The notes under the pieces were generated by a model. It searched no databases, had not been told where the DNA came from, and saw only the letters and a program-made list of their open reading frames with translations. A DNA stretch of 43,016 nucleotides from Candidatus Methanophagales archaeon (GTDB taxonomy: Archaea > Halobacteriota > Syntropharchaeia > Alkanophagales > Methanospirareceae). The stretch covers positions 1-43,016 of the forward strand of contig JACUTR010000002.1 of assembly GCA_014859735.1 (NCBI GenBank), given 5' to 3'. Every line of letters begins with the position of its first letter. The first letter of the stretch is position 1. The position numbers and the translations under genes are program-made. Shown here piece by piece: positions 14,251 through 37,092 of this stretch.

Positions 14251-14274
14251 TCTTTCTTTAGAAAAGAAAGATCA
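14248..14274 (+). terminator. Hairpin overlapping the gltX stop (TGATCTTTCTT-tagaa-AAGAAAGATCA)
   Basis: An 11-bp perfect stem starts at the TGA stop codon. It lies in a convergent intergenic region. Confidence 0.4.
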
Positions 14275-14339
14275 ATCAAAGAAACTGACTTTTCGGAAGC
14301 GACAGGTATTATAAAAGTAGTTGTATAGCTTACATAAAA

Positions 14340-14500
14340 AACCACGAGATTTCACAAGATTAGCACAAGAAATTGAATTAATTAGGGATAAAATAATCAA
14401 TAAAGTACTGAAACCTGGTTACTATTATTTCTCCTGAAATAAACCCTTTCAGGGTTTTCGGGGACGTGGGCAGAGCCCACGATGTGTAATCTTGTGGTTC
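14340..14500. mobile_element. MITE-like element of about 160 bp, with no ORF, sharing termini with the GxxExxY element at 21381-21871
   Basis: The left end is AACCACGAGATTTCACAAGATTAG and the right end is TAATCTTGTGGTT, giving the inverted repeat CACAAGATTA / TAATCTTGTG. The GC-rich double hairpin lies inside it at 14441-14481. Confidence 0.6.
14441..14481. repeat. GC-rich double-hairpin repeat, copy 1 (AAACCCTttcAGGGTTT-tcgggga-CGTGGGCagaGCCCACG)
   Basis: Read directly. Related copies lie at 21399-21440, 33579-33622 and 36681-36760. Confidence 0.85.
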
Positions 14501-14515
14501 GCTAATCAAACACGA

Positions 14516-15316
14516 TTATAAAGAAAGGTTGTTGATAAACTCCAAACTTTCTATTCCTCCCTCCATTGTGTACAACTCCAACACCACGAGCCCCTCATAT
14601 TCAGTATCAGTAATTCCGTTGAGGACCTTCTTCCAATCCAGGCTGCCTTTTCCCAATGGCAAATGGAGATCCTCCGCTCCGAAATTATCGCTCGCATGCA
14701 GGTGTATCATCTCTATATCCTCAGCCTTTGCCTTAATATCGAGGAACTCATCCATTGTTTTTGTCGTATGCGCATGTGCCACATCAACGCATATCCCGAT
14801 ATTATCCCTATTCACACCTCGCACGAGCTGAATGAGTTCATCGGGATATCTTCCCAGCATCATATTCACCGACGGCAAATTCTCCACTGCTATGCGTAAT
14901 CCTCGGTCAGCAGCAAAATCACAAAGCGCCGTCAAACCCGCAACCGCCTTCTGAACTGCCTTCTCCGGCATCTGTATGGACAGTGGTGAGAAAATGCCCG
15001 GATGCACGACGCAGAGATCAGCAATGAATTCGTAGGTGTTCTCTATACTCTCTTTTACCTGACGTACGCTCTCCTTCCACATCCGCTCGTTTACACTCGC
15101 TATATTAATATCAGAGAGGGGCGCGTGTAAGGAAAGAACAAGGGTCGTTGTTTCGTATAGTTCCCTCACCCGCTCTTTAAATTCACCTTCCACTTTTTGG
15201 ACTCCTTCTCCTACAATCTCCCATCCCTGGAACCCTGCATCTTCCAGGCTATACATCCACTCCTGTGGGTTTCTGCACGCATCTACCAGGGAAAAGCTTA
15301 TCTTCGCGTTCATCAC
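14516..15316 (-). CDS. Xylose-isomerase-like TIM-barrel protein (sugar phosphate isomerase/epimerase or AP-endonuclease-2 fold)
   Basis: The 266-aa ORF shows the family's metal-ligand pattern: 'LSLHAP', 'VVHPG', 'IAVENL', 'CVDVAHA', 'IHLHASDN' and 'LVVLEL'. Confidence 0.6.
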   Translation of the reverse strand: MMNAKISFSLVDACRNPQEWMYSLEDAGFQGWEIVGEGVQKVEGEFKERVRELYETTTLVLSLHAPLSDINIASVNERMWKESVRQVKESIENTYEFIADLCVVHPGIFSPLSIQMPEKAVQKAVAGLTALCDFAADRGLRIAVENLPSVNMMLGRYPDELIQLVRGVNRDNIGICVDVAHAHTTKTMDEFLDIKAKAEDIEMIHLHASDNFGAEDLHLPLGKGSLDWKKVLNGITDTEYEGLVVLELYTMEGGIESLEFINNLSL

Positions 15317-15319
15317 ACT

Positions 15320-15350
15320 AAAACTTTTTAGAAAAAAGTTTTATCAAAAA
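15320..15350. promoter_or_regulatory. 31-nt AT-rich palindromic motif AAAACTTTTTAGAAAAAAGTTTTATCAAAAA (copy 1)
   Basis: The core is a 10-bp/2-nt/10-bp palindrome. It is 30/31 identical to the reverse complement of 19853-19885. It lies 4-7 nt upstream of the start of the 14516-15316 gene, and a TATA-like TTTATAAAAAG lies further upstream on the gene strand. Confidence 0.5.
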
Positions 15351-15420
15351 TAATAGTTTCTTTTTATAAATACAATACAAACTTTAGGACTATCAGAAGT
15401 TAGCAGTTTCTTTGGTCAAG

Positions 15421-15439
15421 CTTTCTTTTCCAAAGAAAG
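15421..15439 (-). terminator. Hairpin CTTTCTTT-tcc-AAAGAAAG just after the mobB stop
   Basis: An 8-bp stem lies 6 nt downstream of the mobB stop in T-rich surroundings. Confidence 0.35.
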
Positions 15440-19852: not shown

Positions 19853-19885
19853 ATTTTTTGATAAACCTTTTTTCTAAAAAGTTTT
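19853..19885. promoter_or_regulatory. 31-nt AT-rich palindromic motif (copy 2, on the minus strand) filling the cbiG-C/cbiHC spacer
   Basis: The minus strand reads AAAACTTTTTAGAAAAAAGGTTTATCAAAAAATATG. It starts inside the cbiG-C stop codon and ends at the cbiHC ATG. Confidence 0.5.
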
Positions 19886-20267
19886 AAAACACCACCGCCA
19901 GGGTTATTCTCTTATCAAATGATTCCCTTTTGATGAATTTGAACCCGCCCTTATTCCTCATCGCTCCCAGGATTGCACAAGGTTCAGCAACGCCCTTTAT
20001 ACCAAATACACTGCTCGCTGCGCTTCTCGATTGAACCTCCACACGGTTTATTTCAGCCCGTGAAAAGCAAAGCAACGGGATACCAAGCTTAGCAGAAACC
20101 TCCTGTAACTCCTCAGTTCTTCTGAACTCCACGGTGCATAAACCTTTAACTTCTTCCAGTTCTATTCCCTCTTCTTCTAAGAATATGCGAATCGCTCTCT
20201 CCATCTCCTCCGCCTCAACGCCTCTATGAAATCCAATTCCAATGTAGACATCCTTATCCCTCTTCAT
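19884..20267 (-). CDS. cbiG: CbiG C-terminal domain protein (cobalt-precorrin-5A hydrolase, split form)
   Basis: 'IGIGFHRGV...' and 'GIKGVAEPCAILGA' match the CbiG C-terminal domain. Confidence 0.7.
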   Translation of the reverse strand: MKRDKDVYIGIGFHRGVEAEEMERAIRIFLEEEGIELEEVKGLCTVEFRRTEELQEVSAKLGIPLLCFSRAEINRVEVQSRSAASSVFGIKGVAEPCAILGAMRNKGGFKFIKRESFDKRITLAVVF

Positions 20268-20649
20268 GAAAAGTTGTTATCACCGCCTGGGCGGATAGTC
20301 CCTCTGCAATTATTTGCGCGAATTCATTTGCACCTCTGTGCCCGTTCAGCACCGGAATAACCCATTTTCCGTTCTCATCTATGCAGACCACCCACGGGTC
20401 TTCGGTTTTTTTCTTGGGCTCTATTGCCCTCACCACCACACCAATGGGGAGAACAGCGACGATGTTCTTCTTCGCTCTGAAACTTTCCCGTATCGCCCTA
20501 TAAACGCTTTCCACCTTCTCATCTGCGCTGTTGCACGAGATCTTTTCCGAGCATATCAGCTCTGCATCGAACCCTCGTTCCACAAGATCGCTCTTCACCT
20601 TTTCGGCAATTGCAACTGATTTCTGAGCAAGTGAGAAGATGGCAATCAT
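20254..20649 (-). CDS. cbiG: CbiG N-terminal domain protein (split form)
   Basis: 'PIGVVVRAIEPKKKTEDPWVVCIDENGKWVIPVLNGHRGANEFAQ' matches the CbiG N-terminal domain. It overlaps the C-domain ORF by 14 nt. Confidence 0.7.
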   Translation of the reverse strand: MIAIFSLAQKSVAIAEKVKSDLVERGFDAELICSEKISCNSADEKVESVYRAIRESFRAKKNIVAVLPIGVVVRAIEPKKKTEDPWVVCIDENGKWVIPVLNGHRGANEFAQIIAEGLSAQAVITTFHEEG

Positions 20650-21380
20650 GGCTCATCACCACTATAAAGCCTTGAAAAGCCTGATTTCTCAAGCACATCA
20701 CCCACAATTATCACTGATTGGCTCTTTATACCCGCAGTCCTCACCTTATCGGTTATGTCACCCAGAGTGCCTCTTATTATCTTCTCCTCCCCCCATGACG
20801 CTTTATGAACCACAGCTACGGGTGTCGTGAGGGGATAGCCGACGCGCAGTTCTGAAACCACATCGTCAATGAGATGAACGCCAAGAAAAATGACCATCGT
20901 CGCTCCATGCTTTGAAAGCTCTTTTATACCTTCTCCCGCGGGCTTTCCCGTCTTTCCAAACGGTTTCGTGATTATCAGCGTTTGAGCTATACCTGGTGAG
21001 GTGAATTCTCGTTTTAGGGATGCAGAAGCAGCGGAAAAAGAAGATACACCAGGTACAAGCTCGAATTCGATATTCTTTGAAGCGAGAAACTCCATCTGTT
21101 CTTGAATAGCGGAATAGAAGCTCAAGTCGCCGGAATGAAGCCTCACCACCTTCTTGCCCTCAGTTACAAATCGCTCGAAAATGGCGGAGATTTCTTCTCT
21201 GCTCTTACCATAACTGTCGATCAGTATCGCGTCGTCCCTCGCGTATTTTAAGATATCATTATGGATGAGCGAGCCCGCATATAGTATCACATCGGCACTC
21301 TCTATCTCTCGTTTTCCTCTGAGCGTGAGCATTTCCGGATCGCCCGGCCCCGCGCCAACAAAGACGACGTTCATTTTCAT
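20646..21380 (-). CDS. cbiF: Cobalt-precorrin-4 C11-methyltransferase
   Basis: 'VVFVGAGPGDPEMLT', 'VVRLHSGDLSFYSA' and 'VPGVSSF' are present. The start was set at ATG 21380, because the ORF-track extension to 21449 is a translation of the repeat element. Confidence 0.9.
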   Translation of the reverse strand: MKMNVVFVGAGPGDPEMLTLRGKREIESADVILYAGSLIHNDILKYARDDAILIDSYGKSREEISAIFERFVTEGKKVVRLHSGDLSFYSAIQEQMEFLASKNIEFELVPGVSSFSAASASLKREFTSPGIAQTLIITKPFGKTGKPAGEGIKELSKHGATMVIFLGVHLIDDVVSELRVGYPLTTPVAVVHKASWGEEKIIRGTLGDITDKVRTAGIKSQSVIIVGDVLEKSGFSRLYSGDEP

Positions 21381-21398
21381 AACCACAAGATTACGCAT

Positions 21399-21440
21399 AA
21401 GCCCTTTCAGGGCTTGCGGGGACATGGGGCAGAGCCCCAT
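21399..21440. repeat. GC-rich double-hairpin repeat, copy 2 (AAGCCCTttcAGGGCTT-gcgggga-CATGGGGCagaGCCCCAT)
   Basis: Read directly. Both stems differ from copy 1 by paired (compensatory) changes. Confidence 0.85.
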
Positions 21441-21445
21441 AATTT

Positions 21446-21832
21446 TCACAATATTCTTCTTTTCACCTCCACGCTCTTCTTACCAAAATTTAATAATAAA
21501 CCAATACGCATTTTTGTCGCTTTTAGATAGTTTAATAACTGCGCTTCTTCAATTTCCGTTAAGCCTGCTGTTGCTTTTATCTCTACTATGACTTTATTCT
21601 CGACTATCAAGTCAGGTTTATATTTTCTGGGAATTAACAAGTCTTTGTAACAAATATCGAGTTCTTTTTGCCTCTCAAAAGAAATCTCTCTCAAATTTAG
21701 CTCATAACATAAAGCTTCTTCATAAACATATTCGAGGAAACCAGAGCCTAATTCACGATGGACTTCCATCGCCGCACCTATAATCCCCTGAGTTAAGTCC
21801 TTATAAAGCCACTTTTCATTCGCATTCCCCAT
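21446..21832 (-). CDS. GxxExxY-family protein (PD-(D/E)XK nuclease fold), 128 aa from its own ATG
   Basis: 'GFLEYVY' is the GxxExxY motif and 'PDLIVENKVIVEIKA' is the D..ExK core. The ATG at 21832 is preceded by GAAGGGGGAA. The same frame is also continuous with cbiL. Confidence 0.75.
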   Translation of the reverse strand: MGNANEKWLYKDLTQGIIGAAMEVHRELGSGFLEYVYEEALCYELNLREISFERQKELDICYKDLLIPRKYKPDLIVENKVIVEIKATAGLTEIEEAQLLNYLKATKMRIGLLLNFGKKSVEVKRRIL

Positions 21833-22579
21833 TTCCCCCTTCTGTGTTAATCTTGTGGAATCTCGTGGTTCTGTACCAATATCATCCTTCTTTACGATAA
21901 GAGTGGAGAGGTAATGAGTTGGTTCTTTTAATTCAGTAAGGTTACCCACGACCAGTTTTTGATCCTCGAATCCAACCTTAACACCTAAAATAGCTTTCTT
22001 ATTGCCCAGCATACTTTTAATCGCGTCGGTATTTTTTGGCTTGAGAAAGATCACGGAATCGGAATGTTGTATCACTCGAAGGGCAGTATGGTTTTCTATT
22101 ACATCAGGAATTATAGAAACAATTTCATTCCCTTCTGCGATAGGGACTTTAGCCAGAGCGGAACATGCGGAAAAAGAGGTTACACCAGGTATGATCTCCA
22201 CCTCTTCCACTTCCTCTCCAAAGAAGTCCAGAAATTTGTAGAAGGTGGAGTACAAACTTGGGTCTCCAAGGGTTAGAAATGCGATGGTTTCACACCCTCC
22301 CCTCCTCTCTAATACTTCTCTTTTAGCTTTTTCCCAATAAGATTTCAACTCTTCCTCATTTCTTGTCATCGGAAATAACGGCTCGATTATAAGCGGTTTA
22401 TTCTCTCTTCTCTCCTCTAAAAATTTCTTTATTGTAAGCAATGCTAAGCTGCTTTTACCCTCTCCCGACCTCGGAGCAACTATCATATCCACTTCCTTAA
22501 GTACCTTATACGCTTTCACGGTGAGCAGTTCCGGGTCTCCGGGTCCCACACCTATTCCATACAGCTTGTTGATCCTCAT
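21446..22579 (-). CDS. cbiL: Cobalt-precorrin-2 C20-methyltransferase CbiL (about aa 1-236, 21872-22579) reading through without a stop into the GxxExxY module
   Basis: 'LYGIGVGPGDPELLT', 'LTLGDPSLYST' and 'IPGVTSFSA' are present. There is no in-frame stop between the CbiL domain and 21446. Confidence 0.85.
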   Translation of the reverse strand: MRINKLYGIGVGPGDPELLTVKAYKVLKEVDMIVAPRSGEGKSSLALLTIKKFLEERRENKPLIIEPLFPMTRNEEELKSYWEKAKREVLERRGGCETIAFLTLGDPSLYSTFYKFLDFFGEEVEEVEIIPGVTSFSACSALAKVPIAEGNEIVSIIPDVIENHTALRVIQHSDSVIFLKPKNTDAIKSMLGNKKAILGVKVGFEDQKLVVGNLTELKEPTHYLSTLIVKKDDIGTEPRDSTRLTQKGEMGNANEKWLYKDLTQGIIGAAMEVHRELGSGFLEYVYEEALCYELNLREISFERQKELDICYKDLLIPRKYKPDLIVENKVIVEIKATAGLTEIEEAQLLNYLKATKMRIGLLLNFGKKSVEVKRRIL

Positions 22580-28900: not shown

Positions 28901-29887
28901 GGTTACCGGGTCAATTGAGTTCCCTCCTATCACTACATGCTCTATTGTCCCATCTAACTCCGGCTGAGCTATTTGCCATGGTATTCCTATCCATGGAATC
29001 CCCTGCTCACTTCTCCTCCATTCTGTTTCATTCTCGGAAGAAAGTTGTATCAAATTCATAACCGGGACATCAATCCTCTCCAAATCCTTTAACCCTTCTT
29101 CAGGAGCGTAATAACTCAGTCTAAAAGCTTTCAGGGAAAGGATGATGTCCGGTTTTGCTTCTTCAAGGAGGAAAGGACTCGCTTCTTGATACGCCGCAAC
29201 CACAGTTATTCCCCTCGCTTCAAGGGACCGGATAAGTTCGTCAACAACTTTTAAGTCACCGGTTGCATAATGCGACTTGTAAAACAGTATTCCCGCGGTA
29301 GGCATGCCGGGATCAGGCTCATACCATTCTAAATACGCATCTAAACGTTCAAAAAGCTCCTTTGCTTCCGGATGGTATATCGCATCGTCTGGCAAAACCA
29401 GTGGTGGTTTCACTTCAAGCTCCATACCGCACAAATTCGCAGCCAGATAAACCAAAAGCCTTTTCGCGTTCTCAGTTCCGCCATTTCCCCAGTATTCCTC
29501 AATCCAGGGGTGCGCACTCACATTCACATTTCCCAAATCAGTCTCTCCGGAGTGTATGGCAATTACTTTCGCCCCCGCGTCCTTTCCTTCTCGTAGCCTG
29601 CTCTCCATTTCCATTTGAGACTCCGATCCCAGCATCTCCAGGAAAATAATGTCGTGTCCCCTTAAACTCGCTGGTATTCTCGAGATTTCTTCGGCGGTGT
29701 AAACAGTAACCTTAAAACCTAACTCCTCAGCAGCATCTGTGAGCAGACCTTTATAGCCCGCATAACCCATAATGAAACAGATGTCGCATTTATTATCCTT
29801 CCCCTGGGTTGGTAAGGCGCTTTGAAAGACAGAGAGGCAGAGAAACAAGCACACGATGAAAACTGTTAACAATCTGAATATCTTCAC
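25919..29887 (-). CDS. CobN/Mg-chelatase large-subunit homologue with an N-terminal signal peptide and a C-terminal TM anchor
   Basis: 'IIHFGKHGTQEWLPGK' is the hallmark CobN/ChlH motif. The N-terminus 'MKIFRLLTVFIVCLFLCLSVFQSA' is signal-like. The C-terminus 'LVGIIAVIVILAFISAGYLFGGRKR' is a TM helix followed by a basic tail. The GTG start overlaps the upstream stop (GTGA). Confidence 0.85.
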   Translation of the reverse strand: MKIFRLLTVFIVCLFLCLSVFQSALPTQGKDNKCDICFIMGYAGYKGLLTDAAEELGFKVTVYTAEEISRIPASLRGHDIIFLEMLGSESQMEMESRLREGKDAGAKVIAIHSGETDLGNVNVSAHPWIEEYWGNGGTENAKRLLVYLAANLCGMELEVKPPLVLPDDAIYHPEAKELFERLDAYLEWYEPDPGMPTAGILFYKSHYATGDLKVVDELIRSLEARGITVVAAYQEASPFLLEEAKPDIILSLKAFRLSYYAPEEGLKDLERIDVPVMNLIQLSSENETEWRRSEQGIPWIGIPWQIAQPELDGTIEHVVIGGNSIDPVTGYSYYEPIEDQIKWVVNRTISWIELRNKGNSGKRIAVIYYNHGGGKDNFGACYLNIAPSLEMLLGAMKEEGYGVEGEVPNETELIDLMIRQGRNIGSWAPGELKRMAEHESVVLFPVSEYSEWFNGLPNESREEVIEKWGDPPGDLMVYENTTGKYFVFPVIKLGKVILAPQPTRGILQNETALYHDKELVPHHHYIAFYFWLNREYKADAIIHFGKHGTQEWLPGKESGLSIESCWPALLIQDMPVIYPYQMDNVGEGTQAKRRGNAVIVDHLTPPIESSGLYGNLSELHHKMHLYMDTAEPRLKEEYRQSILDLCAGMGIDEDVNFSVEELRDAKLEEFEELVIRGEVHRYLHELSSEYIPYGLHTLSQPPEGEGLIKMVKSMLGEEYEDHVKAVYDIDHVALLEGNRTMLDELLEEVISNNTPIEEAQYKLLGARSENITTDLELGLTYSAAIAGCDIEIPRILAGLEGRYVPPKMGNDPIRSPEAIPTGNNFYSFDSRIVPTKEAWEVGKELADQLIAEHREKKEAYPNKVAFVLWSVETMRHQGITESEILYLLGAKPVWDSRGRVVDVELISSEELGRPRIDVLVTTSGLYRDTFPDKVRLIDKAVTLASNATEEGFRNYARENSFSIYSSLLREGYNESAASNLSKARIFSEPPGAYGTNLDDAVAASSTWEDETKLANLYIKRLSHVYGEATWGNQHAGVFEENLKGVDVAVHSQSSNLYGVMDNDDYFQYLGGLALAVRNTKGETPDLYISNQRNPGGEKIDALSNYLTREQRARYFSPKWITGMKEEGYAGAREMAKFVEHQWGWDVMVPELITERMWNETYEVYVKDKYDLGLKEFFEANPYAYQSITARMLEVSRKGYWHPSEEVLEELAKEYAESVAEHGVTCCHHTCGNPRLREYIAGLLSAPGVISIGTVMKYNEEVLSAAGKGGVGEEEVVKVGKVMAEVAGEEGFPISATPLVGIIAVIVILAFISAGYLFGGRKR

Positions 29888-30246
29888 TTCTTCTCTTCCC
29901 TCTCCAATTCCACGGGAACATAAATTATCTCGCCGGTTTCCAATTTATACGCGGTTCCGAGTATCTTCCCTCTCCCTCCCGCAGTTTTGTTGGTCATTTC
30001 CAGGTGCTTTATCTCCTTCCCGTCTTTGATGATGATCTCCATATCCTCTTCGCCTGGATTCTTCACGATGGTCACCTTAGACTGCTCAGAAAGAAGCTCT
30101 GGTAGATGTGAGGAGAAAGCAAAGGCAATGAGCAATATTACTGCAAAAGCCATTGCTACATCGAATAGATTAGCTAATCCACGCATAGGGTCTTCCTCTT
30201 CTCCGATAATATCGCTATACCTCCTTCTTCGTGCCATTATCATCAC
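29884..30246 (-). CDS. ExbD/TolR-like single-pass protein (possibly DUF2149-type)
   Basis: A basic N-terminus is followed by the TM segment 'LANLFDVAMAFAVILLIAF', with an intramembrane Asp as in ExbD/TolR. A beta-rich domain of about 60 aa follows. Confidence 0.6.
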   Translation of the reverse strand: MMIMARRRRYSDIIGEEEDPMRGLANLFDVAMAFAVILLIAFAFSSHLPELLSEQSKVTIVKNPGEEDMEIIIKDGKEIKHLEMTNKTAGGRGKILGTAYKLETGEIIYVPVELEREEKK

Positions 30247-30859
30247 CTCCTAAAACTTCCACCACGTATTCCATATCACTCAAATCTTGAGAATACCATC
30301 TCCTCTTGATCGTCGCCATAACGTAGTTTAATCCTCCAATAAGCAAACCCAGGACGGTGGTGCTGAATACAACGATCAAATTGGTAGCCATTTCACTTAT
30401 GTTCCCCGACGCCAAATTCATTAACGCCGGGCCCATGGGTATCAACGTCCCCATGAGCCCCAGCATCGGTCCTACCCTGATTAATATCCGTTCCTTCTCA
30501 GTTCTCTCCCATACAGTTATCTCATACTCTTGCAGGAGCTTTTCAGCCTCCGTTTTGAAATTCCACTTTCCAATAAACCCGGAGAGGTCGTCAATAAACC
30601 TGGAAAGTAGATAACTTGAACCACTACTTCTAACGGTTTCGGACGCTTTTTCAATTTCTCCTCCCACTAAAAACTTTTTTGCCTCCCCACATCCTATTCT
30701 AAGCTTATCTAAATCGCGATTCCTGGAGATGTATTCAGAGAAGAACGCACCTATTTCTACAAATGAGTAGAGTAAAAGCACAAGCAGCCCGATTATCACC
30801 GGATACAATAGCGCTAAGGTTACTGTGTAAAGAGGAGTTAACAGTACCTCGGAGACCAT
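30215..30859 (-). CDS. MotA/TolQ/ExbB-family proton channel protein
   Basis: 'GPMLGLMGTLIPMGPAL' and 'NLIVVFSTTVLGLLIGGL' match the conserved ExbB/TolQ TM2-TM3 region. A perfect SD (AAAGGAGGTGATC) lies upstream of the ATG. Confidence 0.8.
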   Translation of the reverse strand: MVSEVLLTPLYTVTLALLYPVIIGLLVLLLYSFVEIGAFFSEYISRNRDLDKLRIGCGEAKKFLVGGEIEKASETVRSSGSSYLLSRFIDDLSGFIGKWNFKTEAEKLLQEYEITVWERTEKERILIRVGPMLGLMGTLIPMGPALMNLASGNISEMATNLIVVFSTTVLGLLIGGLNYVMATIKRRWYSQDLSDMEYVVEVLGGDDNGTKKEV

Positions 30860-33578: not shown

Positions 33579-33622
33579 AAACCCTTACAGGGTTTTCGGG
33601 GTCAACGGGGCGGAGCCCCGTT
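33579..33622. repeat. GC-rich double-hairpin repeat, copy 3 (AAACCCTtacAGGGTTT-tcggggtc-AACGGGGCggaGCCCCGTT)
   Basis: Read directly. It fills the 28-nt junction between two operonic genes and supplies the last 7 codons and the stop of the upstream ORF. Confidence 0.85.
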
Positions 33623-34597
33623 TATCGAAGCTCCCTGGTTGTTTCCGGTAGTGTAAAAGACATCCCCTCCGCCCTGTTTCGCCAGGAAGTGCTCAAGTTT
33701 CTCAACAAGCTCTCGTGCGATCTCTCCGTTGTTCACTATACCGTAGAATGTTGGCCCCCAGCAGGATTGGCATGCCCCATATGCCCCGTTATGTAATAGT
33801 ATCTCTATCCCTGTCTCGACGACGGGATGGCAATAGGTGCAACCCCCCTGGAACTCACCCCAGAAATCACCGAGGCGGCTGTTGAATGCGGTTGTGGATT
33901 TACCAAAGGTCGTTATGTCGTGTTCTATGATGGAAGGCATGACTTGCATGAGCATTATTCGGGAGAGCCGGTCGGACATCTGCTCCGGCATCGGCTTCAG
34001 GTTATTGAGTATCTCTTCCTCATTCTCTTTTAGCTTCAGTATCGCCGGTATCGGCTCGTGTGGTATGCAGATGACAAAGAGCCAGTCCTCTGGTATCGGG
34101 TGTCTGAACAGGAGTGGCGGAACTGCCCTGCCTTTCTCATTGATCCTGTATCCGCCATCGACGATGAATCCTCCGGTTTTGAAGGAGTATAACCCGAGGG
34201 CAACGATGTCTGATCTCCCGAGAGCGAGAGCCATCTCCTCGATATTAGTAGGGAGAGCATAAAGTTCTGAGAGCGCAAGACCTATCGACAATGCAAGTGT
34301 GGTCTGAGAGCCCAAGCCGAGGTGCTTTGGGATGGTTTCCTTAATGTTAACCGTGATTCCGCCCTCAACATTGAACCTTTCCATGAATGCGCTAACATAT
34401 CGTTCTGCGCTTTCTTTCTCCTCTCCTGTGATCGTGATCCTGTCTGACCTATAAGCTTCTATGACTGTTCGTGGATAGTCTATGGTGAAGCCTGCTGTGC
34501 CGTAGAGTCTTTCAAGGTCTCCGGTTAAGTCCATGTTTCCCGCATGGAGGTGCGCGGGTGCAACAACGACTGCCCCAAGTCCACCAACAAGAGCCAT
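33602..34597 (-). CDS. GHMP-kinase-fold protein, beta-ribofuranosylaminobenzene 5'-phosphate (RFAP) synthase-like
   Basis: 'APAHLHAGNMDL' resembles the RLHFGLIDL start of the family. The GHMP motif 'IPKHLGLGSQTTLALS' is present. Confidence 0.55.
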   Translation of the reverse strand: MALVGGLGAVVVAPAHLHAGNMDLTGDLERLYGTAGFTIDYPRTVIEAYRSDRITITGEEKESAERYVSAFMERFNVEGGITVNIKETIPKHLGLGSQTTLALSIGLALSELYALPTNIEEMALALGRSDIVALGLYSFKTGGFIVDGGYRINEKGRAVPPLLFRHPIPEDWLFVICIPHEPIPAILKLKENEEEILNNLKPMPEQMSDRLSRIMLMQVMPSIIEHDITTFGKSTTAFNSRLGDFWGEFQGGCTYCHPVVETGIEILLHNGAYGACQSCWGPTFYGIVNNGEIARELVEKLEHFLAKQGGGDVFYTTGNNQGASINGAPPR

Positions 34598-36542: not shown

Positions 36543-36680
36543 TTAAATTGCAGATTAGCTCTTACTCTTCTTTTCTAGCCCCCGAAAAAATAAGTAGACT
36601 TTGATCAGTAGATTATGCCCTTTTCAGCGACCCTGCTCGATCTCTAACCTTCTCTCTATGGCATTCAGCCATTTCCGCAT

Positions 36681-36760
36681 CGTGGGCTCTGCCCATCACG
36701 GGCTCTGCCCGTGCCCCCGCAAGCCCCGGAGGGGCTTACCCGAAAACCCTGAAAGGGTTT
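36681..36760. repeat. GC-rich double-hairpin repeat, copies 4a/4b (inverted orientation, nested or tandem pair)
   Basis: The sequence is CGTGGGCtctGCCCAT / CACGGGCtctGCCCGTG / AAGCCCCggaGGGGCTT / AAACCCTgaaAGGGTTT. It supplies the last 8 codons and the stop of the 118-aa ORF. Confidence 0.85.
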
Positions 36761-37092
36761 ATGCTTACGATTGCTCGCGCTTCTATCATGGTGAATGGTA
36801 TGCACCGATCTTCTCTAAAGACTATCTCTCGGTATCTTCTCATCTCCTCTGAAATATCCTGAAATCGTCCATCTCTTCTTAGAATCTCTCCCATTATCTG
36901 TAATACCTCCCTCATCCTCTCCACCTGAGAGAGACCGATTTCAATGAGAGACTCGATGGTATCTTTTAAATCATCGGGTGGGAGCGGGGATTCCATTACA
37001 CATATCATCCTAACTCCTTTCTTTCCTTTTACCATAACATCATCCTGAACCCATACAAGAGGCGCAGATGTGGATGAGGTACTCTCCGTCAT
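36736..37092 (-). CDS. Hypothetical protein (118 aa)
   Basis: This is the long ORF at the head of the co-directional gene array. No motif was recognised, and the C-terminus is encoded by the repeat element. Confidence 0.4.
   Translation of the reverse strand: MTESTSSTSAPLVWVQDDVMVKGKKGVRMICVMESPLPPDDLKDTIESLIEIGLSQVERMREVLQIMGEILRRDGRFQDISEEMRRYREIVFREDRCIPFTMIEARAIVSINPFRVFG

Follow-up and report, generated by a model that had tools for sequence, protein, structure and literature searches.

Small units of DNA bounded by repeats have been described in several forms. MITEs (miniature inverted-repeat transposable elements) and their parent insertion sequences have terminal inverted repeats; repetitive extragenic palindromes (REPs) and REPINs are scattered intergenic repeats, inverted copies of which bracket the gene of a small nuclease, the REP-associated tyrosine transposase (RAYT); free-standing homing endonuclease genes are small nuclease genes wedged between conserved genes; and rRNA intervening sequences enclose small orphan open reading frames (ORFs) in stem-forming inverted repeats. 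The unit considered here lies in a 43,016-nucleotide stretch of DNA (hereafter the window) from a methane-oxidising archaeon, Candidatus Methanophagales archaeon (contig JACUTR010000002.1 of assembly GCA_014859735.1). Element B, a 490-nt unit at 21381-21870, sits between the vitamin-B12 methyltransferase genes cbiL and cbiF and encloses a gene for a 128-aa protein of the GxxExxY family (PDDEXK_3, with a PD-(D/E)XK nuclease motif) between inverted terminal arrays. It is probably a selfish unit of compact size, on whose inverted arrays its own small nuclease acts. That such DNA moves is well supported: there are many copies, they stand at unrelated sites, some sites are empty in relatives, and target duplications occur. 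Binding or cleavage of the arrays by the protein, and the route of integration, we infer, the link between protein and arrays being drawn from their joint occurrence across phyla, the lineage-specific array units, the lack of any other gene inside and the constraint on both.

The edges of element B are inverted repeats of the form AACCAC...GTGGTT, and its ends are inverted arrays, here of the units CCACGAGATT / CACAAGATT / AACACAGAA. An earlier interpretation, made without database searches (the sequence-only reading), had placed an 11-mer inverted repeat at 21383-21393 and 21849-21859; the inverted repeats are there, the second copy lies at 21848-21858, and what was taken for a single 11-mer belongs to arrays of three ~10-nt units. 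The exact 11-mer CCACAAGATTA occurs at 21383-21393 (+), 21848-21858 (-) and 14487-14497 (-), i.e., three times where shuffled sequences give an expectation of 0.02, and the doubled 21-mer CCACNAGATTNCACNAGATTA occurs at 21848-21868 (-) and 14342-14362 (+), twice where none is expected. Because the 11-mer alone at up to two mismatches is at chance level (12 hits, 12.1 expected), the significance of the termini rests on the exact and doubled copies. Together with at least 119 loci elsewhere, these rule out a chance similarity of the termini, and the claim that the GxxExxY gene lies inside a unit bounded by inverted repeats stands. The last codons and the stop of the GxxExxY ORF fall within the right arm, in AGAATATTGTGA (21457-21446, -). 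Outside the left array, the outer-left end GTATTTGTATAGAA abuts it in five other copies (L016, L030, L072, L089, L126). In other copies the right arm is uninterrupted, as GAATCTTGTG / AAAATCTGTG / TAATCTTGTGG (e.g., L134, L131, L142). Thus, the GC-rich double hairpin at 21399-21440, noticed by the sequence-only reading and counted there as part of the element, is a separate repeat that was inserted later into the right arm.

The 128-aa product matches TIGR04256 (GxxExxY) over model positions 2-115 of 116 with 154 bits (cutoff 35) and PF13366 over positions 1-116 of 117 with 146.2 bits (cutoff 22; E 6.6e-43), which upholds the earlier assignment to GxxExxY; the ribosome-binding site and ATG of its own are present too. 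Its PD-(D/E)XK motifs are G31-F-L-E34-Y-V-Y37, P-D74 and E84-I-K86; no alignment, down to an identity of 40%, shows a change at E34, D74, E84 or K86. The cbiL frame enters the left array as GAA CCA CGA GAT TCC ACA AGA TTA ACA CAG... and passes through it stop-free, in the same frame as the nuclease ORF, so that a 377-aa chimera is predicted. Within this ORF, amino acids 5-231 match TIGR01467 (CbiL) over model positions 2-230 of 230 with 191.5 bits, above the full-length equivalog cutoff of 163.25 despite the fusion (enzyme activity being a prediction), and amino acids 262-375 match TIGR04256 with E 2.5e-44; no stop codon separates the two parts. The internal Shine-Dalgarno (SD) sequence and ATG would also allow the usual 128-aa product. 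An identical 377-aa product is encoded on an independently assembled Logan contig (L001, SRR11917416), which stops 49 nt past the stop of the fusion ORF, within the hairpin repeat; its end suggests that such repeats break short-read assemblies of genomes of anaerobic methanotrophic archaea (ANME).

An exact-pattern scan for the 21-nt end motif, with one genome per species, gave at least 119 loci. These are mostly in metagenome-assembled genomes (MAGs) of Methanophagales/ANME-1, Methanosarcinales (including ANME-2) and GoM-Arc1, while some come from bacteria (MAGs of Deltaproteobacteria, WOR-3, TA06, Planctomycetota and Chloroflexi); a few contigs labelled "bacterial" or "Nitrosotalea" have flanks of ANME-1 type and may be binning errors. 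No fewer than 11 copies occur in a single MAG, GoMg2. Roughly two in three of the listed matches have an inverted partner 38-160 nt downstream, and the elements fall into size classes of ~58, 80, 120 and 140-200 nt, the gene-less ones (58-200 nt) being the majority of the listed loci. Among the fetched loci (~0.7 Mb), the sole coding members with the same arrays are GxxExxY elements, most of them without outer repeats; every long member bounded by such ends carries GxxExxY and measures 423-503 nt, and no ORF of 60 aa or more other than GxxExxY lies within the ends. Pfam and NCBIfam searches give PDDEXK_3/GxxExxY only, with no DDE, HUH, serine or tyrosine transposase. A transposase-bearing parent was sought among pairs of outer ends lying 0.6-4.5 kb apart in the same loci; these enclose only separate MITEs.

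Close homologues of the GxxExxY protein number in the thousands, and the best 120 are 81-93% identical to it, nearly all exactly 128 aa long and free-standing. Near-identical copies (85-91% in amino acid sequence) occur at no fewer than five unrelated junctions. A full copy lies between the genes for an iron-containing alcohol dehydrogenase (Fe-ADH) and UPF0179 in several ANME-1 genomes, and another between MotA_ExbB and DUF2149 in two other Methanophagales MAGs (L131, L132), where the right flank provides AAGGAGG and an ATG for DUF2149; in the window MotA_ExbB (30215..30859) and DUF2149 (29884..30246) overlap directly, i.e., that junction (~30215-30246) is empty. The right flank of the elements often carries the SD sequence of the downstream gene, and in L126 the outer-left end gives Fe-ADH its stop codon (GTA ATT GTA TAA). 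A contig of Deltaproteobacteria bacterium UBA4796 (L018, 6620-7160) has a full element of 80% amino acid identity at an ABC-2 permease|ABC ATPase junction, in tandem with a 77-nt internal-deletion copy; its AAAGATGG-like flanking repeats suggest a second insertion beside the first. Two further loci (L072, L090) retain only the SD sequence and the first and last codons, and are true internal-deletion derivatives. A tblastn search of 50,697 phage records gave no match to the protein. The loci L123 and L121 have an identical GxxExxY gene and UPF0179 flank, whereas the left flank is MoaE in one and Fe-ADH in the other, the switch lying exactly at the left array, either by recombination between copies or through a chimeric short-read assembly; as the assembly may be chimeric, L123 is not used as evidence of a second insertion site.

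A gene-less relative, element A, lies in the same window; the sequence-only reading had noticed it as an ORF-less element at about 14340-14500, and its true extent, with outer repeats and duplication, is 14316-14514. Its outer inverted ends are GTAGTTGTATAGC...GCTAATCAAACAC, and its putative 8-bp target duplication is offset by 1 nt from the family consensus ends on each side. Archaeal outer inverted repeats are of several types, which also occur mixed, among them GTATTTGTATAGCTAA-n5-AAAAAA|CCAC...GTGG|TTAGCTAAACAAATAC and GTATGTGTTTAGC...GCTAAACACATAC. Flanking duplications of 8 bp (7-8 of 8 positions identical) are present in 16 of the 30 elements that have both outer repeats, against 0.3% in mismatched controls, and the gene-less elements with outer repeats are thus genuine transposed elements. 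Like MITEs, element A is small and ends in inverted repeats, lacks a transposase gene, has many relatives with the same end motif and is flanked by a duplication of fixed length. Elements A and B have only the arrays in common. Descent of element A from B by deletion was considered and rejected, as the alignments of five class-1 cores with the ORF interior are no better than those of shuffled sequences. Of the earlier idea of an autonomous unit paired with its MITE, therefore, the gene-less relatives remain and the derivation of A from B does not.

The junction between cbiL and cbiF has been found in several states. It is empty in L133, where CbiL is 90% identical to that of the window and the cbiL stop and cbiF start overlap as ATGA (the MAG of L133 carries the element family elsewhere, at L016, L045 and L055), and CbiL ends as ..IVKKEDEK* in the empty P0121 and P0122 (CbiL 90-91% identical). 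Full in-frame CbiL-GxxExxY fusions of 369-377 aa make up at least 11 clusters, with CbiL 63-88% identical to that of the window; three of these (P0124, P0128, P0129) have lost the internal SD sequence and ATG and keep the GxxExxY domain intact. In P0126, P0181, P0185 and P0163 the in-frame fusion is to an internal-deletion remnant ending in ..TRLTQNGTKSLEVRRRIL*, L137 has a solo left array joined as ...CCACAAG|GTTATG, and L028 is an ATTA-microhomology deletion of an L142-like copy. At the same junction in L136 (CbiL relative P0125) stands, at 1880-2000, a sequence AACCACGAGATTCCACAACACTTTTTCTTTTT... of the AT-hairpin core type with no recognisable right arm, into which CbiL reads to give a 258-aa protein; this is either a different occupant or a rearranged remnant. 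Since the fusion is common to lineages whose CbiL proteins are 63-88% identical, and since its states are so varied, the insertion would predate much of the diversification of ANME-1 and decay by deletion. On these comparisons the cbiL|cbiF copy appears to be an old, vertically inherited insertion in Methanophagales (ANME-1) and not a recent one. The empty sites are either ancestral or precise losses. As regards the sequence-only reading, its predicted 377-aa fusion holds, with no intervening stop, and recurs in other lineages, and the checks that it proposed showed that the termini recur elsewhere, that the gene-less elements with outer repeats have target-site duplications, and that a relative has an empty cbiL-cbiF junction. 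Its suggestion of a small mobile or homing element holds for mobility; homing does not agree with the many unrelated insertion sites, and that the nuclease mobilises the unit is an inference.

The association of gene and arrays extends well beyond the close relatives. At 50% identity the GxxExxY proteins of bacteria and archaea fall into 19,220 clusters (E<=1e-3), and at E<=1e-10 there are 5,101 clusters, many members being 250-295 aa long with two tandem GxxExxY domains (P0256-P0261 and others), which suggests that the working unit may be a dimer. Genes on plasmids and chromids, 37-48% identical to that of the window, lie between co-oriented genes, and inverted arrays flank three of the four such loci examined: TTCACCACAGAGGACGCAGAGGACACGGAG / CTCTGTGACCTCTGTGTCCTCTGTGGTGAA in Bacteroides finegoldii (30 nt, 90% complementary), AACACAGAGATAAGGAGAACCACAGAGA and its complement in Bernardetia, and a 16-nt inverted pair in Treponema; the plasmid locus of Fusobacteria has no such flanking pair. 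From a sample of 80 metagenome loci (45-60% identity; one 87%) and the four plasmid loci, 81 were suitable for evaluation, and 42 of these have a flanking pair of inverted arrays; when the flanks are widened, a stricter cutoff on the score is passed by 49 loci. Flanking inverted arrays are thus a property of the GxxExxY family in general. The distant units, of 8-10 nt, are CACAGATTA, CGCAGATTA, CACGAATTA, CACGGAGG, CACTAATTA and similar; they vary by lineage and match between the two arms, and the tips are (A/T)(A/T)CCRC. Among 26 clear cases, the gene upstream points the same way in 25 and the opposite way in one; for the gene downstream, the orientation is the same in 18 of 25.

Both gene and arrays are constrained. 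The GxxExxY ORF is under purifying selection: the ratio of non-synonymous to synonymous substitution (dN/dS) is 0.07-0.25 among ANME copies at different sites, and 0.25 between the window and L134, both CbiL-fused. Between archaeal copies and L018 the synonymous sites are saturated, yet the arrays differ by G/A changes only, which points to direct constraint on the array sequence. As to fold, there is no relative by sequence in the PDB, and profile searches gave only weak matches to Cas4 (including those of PADLOC) and to phage endonuclease I; a link to defence systems, for which PADLOC offers nothing beyond these Cas4 matches, was set aside. Of two AlphaFold2 models made on shallow alignments (predicted local distance difference test, pLDDT, 49 and 54), the second shows the expected order of helices and strands.

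Table 1. Positions of element B, the genes around it, the GC-rich hairpin copies and element A in the window (SD, Shine-Dalgarno; empty cell, no entry)
Feature	Positions	Strand	Remarks
Left array, three ~10-nt units AACCACGAGATT / CCACAAGATT / AACACAGAAG	21839..21870	-	
Innermost right-arm unit AGAATATTGTGAAAATT	21441..21457	-	overlaps last codons (..RIL) and TGA stop
Nested GC-rich double hairpin ATGGGGCTCTGCCCCAT GTCCCCGC AAGCCCTGAAAGGGCTT	21399..21440	-	splits second right-arm unit
Right terminal unit ATGCGTAATCTTGTGGTT	21381..21398	-	inverted partner of left array; adjoins cbiF ATG
CbiL-GxxExxY ORF, 377 aa	21446..22579	-	CbiL (precorrin-2/cobalt-factor-II C20-methyltransferase) running stop-free into GxxExxY
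CbiL methyltransferase domain, aa 1-231	21885..22579	-	TIGR01467; homology to empty-site relative L133 stops at ...AAGAAGGA
Segment TGATATTGGTACAG	21871..21884	-	missing from empty junction; resembles outer-left end GTATTTGTATAGAA; translated as CbiL tail ..DIGT
SD-like GAAGGGGGAA, then ATG (21832-21830)	21830..21842	-	start of free-standing 128-aa GxxExxY ORF; N-terminal peptide MGNANEK
GxxExxY / PDDEXK_3 ORF, 128 aa and stop	21446..21832	-	E34, D74, E84, K86 intact
Peptide spanning the CbiL-GxxExxY fusion			DDIGTEPRDSTRLTQKGEMGNANEK
cbiF (precorrin-4 C11-methyltransferase)	20646..21380	-	TIGR01465, 279.6 bits; ATG directly adjoins right end of element
GC hairpin module copies	14441-14480, 21399-21440, 33579-33625, 36673-36767		
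Element A, gene-less, 199 nt	14316..14514	+	no ORF
Element A, outer-left end	14316-14341		
Element A, left array	14342-14371		AT-rich core follows
Element A, nested GC hairpin module	14441-14480		
Element A, right terminal unit	14481-14497		
Element A, outer-right end	14498-14514		
ATTATAAA, putative 8-bp target-site duplication of element A, left copy	14308..14315		
ATTATAAA, putative 8-bp target-site duplication of element A, right copy	14515..14522		

The GC-rich double hairpin (~45 nt, of the form AARCCCTTTCAGGGYTT-KCGGGGAC-RTGGGCAGAGCCCAY) is an independent repeat family (positions in Table 1). It is nested at the equivalent spot of the right arm in elements A and B, in opposite orientations, stands alone at 33.6 kb between two minus-strand genes, and forms an array of ~4 hairpins at 36673-36767. 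Among the fetched loci it has 19 matches, repeatedly at the same position of the right arm and often beside ATCTGYG units. Two AT-rich hairpins also occur as inverted pairs at gene ends in the window, AAAACTTTTTAGAAAAAAGTTTTATCAAAAA at 15319-15350 / 19855-19886 (97% complementary) and CTTTCTTTAGAAAAGAAAG..CAAAGAAACTG at 14252-14287 / 15404-15439; both make up the "class 2" core of the array-ended elements L006, L012, L015 and L097. Rfam gave no match at gathering score anywhere in the window, and around element A only hits at chance level (E>=0.14). On the cbiF side, the gene begins 65 nt after the nuclease stop, and an in-frame GTG at 21449 (-) overlaps that stop (as GTGA) and opens a 267-aa variant of CbiF, reaching to 20646, whose frame runs across both the hairpin module and the right arm; CbiF could thus be made by coupled re-initiation, with an extension of 23 aa.

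The observations can be assembled into the following scheme. The element's sole gene would be a promoter-less one for the 128-aa nuclease, and its ends inverted arrays of two to three 8-10-bp units. Lying between co-directional genes, the elements are probably transcribed by read-through, to judge from their orientation, and the nuclease is probably translated from its own SD sequence and ATG, or, if no stop closes the frame of the gene upstream, as a predicted C-terminal fusion. The nuclease, as a dimer or higher multimer, may bind the arrays on both arms, or the cruciform extruded from them, and by cutting at the tips would drive the movement of the unit; gene-less derivatives in which the two arrays persist would be moved likewise. 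In ANME these derivatives would have multiplied as MITE-like elements with 8-bp target duplications. At cbiL and cbiF, the insertion would have replaced the ATGA stop/start overlap, the frame happening to join CbiL to the nuclease, and the GC-rich double hairpin would have landed later in the right arm. A bolder proposition, which we put forward as a tentative one and hold to be somewhat less probable than its converse, is that GxxExxY is the dedicated nuclease of an unrecognised minimal class of elements, in which a PD-(D/E)XK protein alone, working on inverted arrays of 8-10-bp units or on the cruciform made by them, mobilises itself and a large population of gene-less derivatives, and which crosses the boundary between archaea and bacteria in methane-seep consortia.

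Several points weigh against a nuclease that moves its own unit. No known class of transposase is present in the element, and we know of no PD-(D/E)XK protein that carries out strand transfer alone; the expression of GxxExxY and its activity on the arrays are predictions. The core of element A is unrelated to the GxxExxY ORF by local alignment (global alignment is uninformative). Clear target duplications are confined to the gene-less subfamily with outer repeats (GTATTTGTATAGC...GCTAAACAAATAC), and an unlinked transposase with specificity for the outer ends could therefore be what moves these gene-less elements. At ORF-bearing copies, duplications are within background: of 49 copies, L218 alone has a perfect one. 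Inspection by eye gives AATAAAA on either side of L131 and AAAGATGG-like flanks for L018, and the cbiL|cbiF junction is too diverged for the comparison. About half of the sampled distant GxxExxY genes have no convincing flanking repeat. The structure model is poor, and Foldseek gave no hit at E<0.08, its top matches being an archaeal splicing endonuclease and Hjc.

The main rival is a passenger model, in which the arrays and the ORF are a cassette with some other role (an array-binding nuclease in defence, addiction or local DNA processing) that is carried along by an unlinked conventional transposase acting on outer GTA...TAC ends with 8-bp staggered cuts. Duplications of 8 bp are typical of DDE transposition and go with the outer repeats alone, the types of outer end vary and mix while the inner arrays stay constant, the ORF-bearing copies are without clear duplications, and no PD-(D/E)XK core is known to integrate DNA by itself. 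Against this rival, the fetched loci (~0.7 Mb) contain no transposase gene bounded by these ends; ORF-bearing copies without outer repeats sit at many unrelated junctions in archaea and bacteria, and across phyla the arrays differ between GxxExxY lineages with no common outer end. We consider this rival a serious one but unlikely, and prefer an element acted on by its own nuclease.

Two other explanations give the repeats or the gene a role in the host operon, and both are improbable. The arrays could form a long stem in the operon transcript, comparable to the rRNA intervening sequences, which is processed, or which insulates the ORF or restores the coupling of genes, so that the repeats are kept for RNA structure and not for recognition as DNA. 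In ANME, the stem mismatches on the sense strand are indeed mostly G.T pairs (55 of 78 at position 7 and 23 of 78 at position 17, against 6 and 4 A.C pairs), the orientation of the elements is almost without exception that of the gene upstream, which gives them a fixed transcribed sense, and the right flank often has the SD sequence of the downstream gene. In 42 diverse loci, however, mismatches of G.U type (44) and A.C type (51) show no strand-specific signature, so that a role as an RNA stem would be at most secondary; there is no Rfam match, target duplications and gene-less multiplication require a process at the level of DNA, and an RNA role offers no explanation for the fact that in every case the ORF inside encodes a nuclease whose catalytic residues are conserved. 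Still less credible, to the point of being very improbable, is domestication, with GxxExxY as a working C-terminal domain of CbiL that is no longer mobile at this locus. The many clusters of in-frame fusions, the three fused proteins with an intact domain and no internal start, and the dN/dS of 0.25 between the window and L134 would agree with it. The closest CbiL relatives, however, are without the domain, which makes a domesticated one unlikely, and others have remnants or a solo array, so that the domain is dispensable; other junctions have this protein, with 85-91% identity, in free-standing form, and corrin methylation has no known connection with a PD-(D/E)XK nuclease.

In the full-text literature searched, which leaves subscription works and database comments outside, GxxExxY is named only in passing, its genomic context is undescribed, and these repeats or elements, including MITEs of ANME-1, have no description. 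GxxExxY/PDDEXK_3 is a large family, annotated and unexplained, and a defined DNA architecture gives it a directly testable substrate, i.e., the arrays. If the nuclease does mobilise the unit, this would be a transposition-like system built on an enzyme of restriction-endonuclease fold alone. For ANME archaea, the elements are an abundant repeat family that breaks assemblies and sits in operons, where an element changes the termini of proteins (CbiL here, Fe-ADH in L126) and can supply ribosome-binding sites to downstream genes; annotations of a "377-aa CbiL" are fusions with the element.

Compared with the systems named at the outset, these elements resemble MITEs and their parent insertion sequences in their terminal inverted repeats, many copies per genome, gene-less and internally deleted members, 8-bp duplications (in the gene-less ANME subfamily) and polymorphic presence between relatives; they differ in that there is no DDE, HUH, serine or tyrosine transposase, the only ORF being the 128-aa PD-(D/E)XK nuclease, in that the ends are arrays of 8-10-nt units, and in that the ORF-bearing copies are nearly always co-oriented and intergenic, with no clear duplication. 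The closest arrangement is that of REPs or REPINs with RAYTs, where a nuclease gene lies between copies of the repeats that it disperses. RAYTs, however, are HUH/Y1 (IS200-like) proteins and not PD-(D/E)XK ones, and the GxxExxY ORF has no match to Y1_Tnp (PF01797), the domain that defines them; a RAYT gene is usually present once, GxxExxY genes many times; each REP is one imperfect palindrome and not an array of tandem units; and to our knowledge REPINs have not been reported with 8-bp duplications.

Free-standing homing endonuclease genes (seg and mob of phage, or I-Ssp6803I among the PD-(D/E)XK homing enzymes) share the small nuclease gene placed co-oriented between conserved genes, present in some relatives and absent from others, whereas homing enzymes have one cognate site and these elements occupy many unrelated junctions, with inverted terminal arrays and gene-less progeny. 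The rRNA intervening sequences with four-helix-bundle proteins (PF05635 / TIGR02436) likewise have a small multi-copy orphan ORF inside stem-forming inverted repeats, and are unlike these elements in the fold of the protein and in their rRNA setting with excision by RNase III; here there is no family-wide signature of an RNA strand. Finally, small dimeric PD-(D/E)XK nucleases specific for junctions or structures (archaeal Hjc, T7 endonuclease I, Cas4 and TnsA of Tn7) are similar to GxxExxY in size and in catalytic motif (D...E-x-K), although none gives a significant match in sequence or fold. Hjc, endonuclease I and Cas4 are not encoded in a repeat-bounded unit of their own, whereas TnsA is, and needs the DDE protein TnsB; enzymes of Hjc type act on four-way junctions, and the inverted arrays of the elements described here could form such a junction by extrusion.

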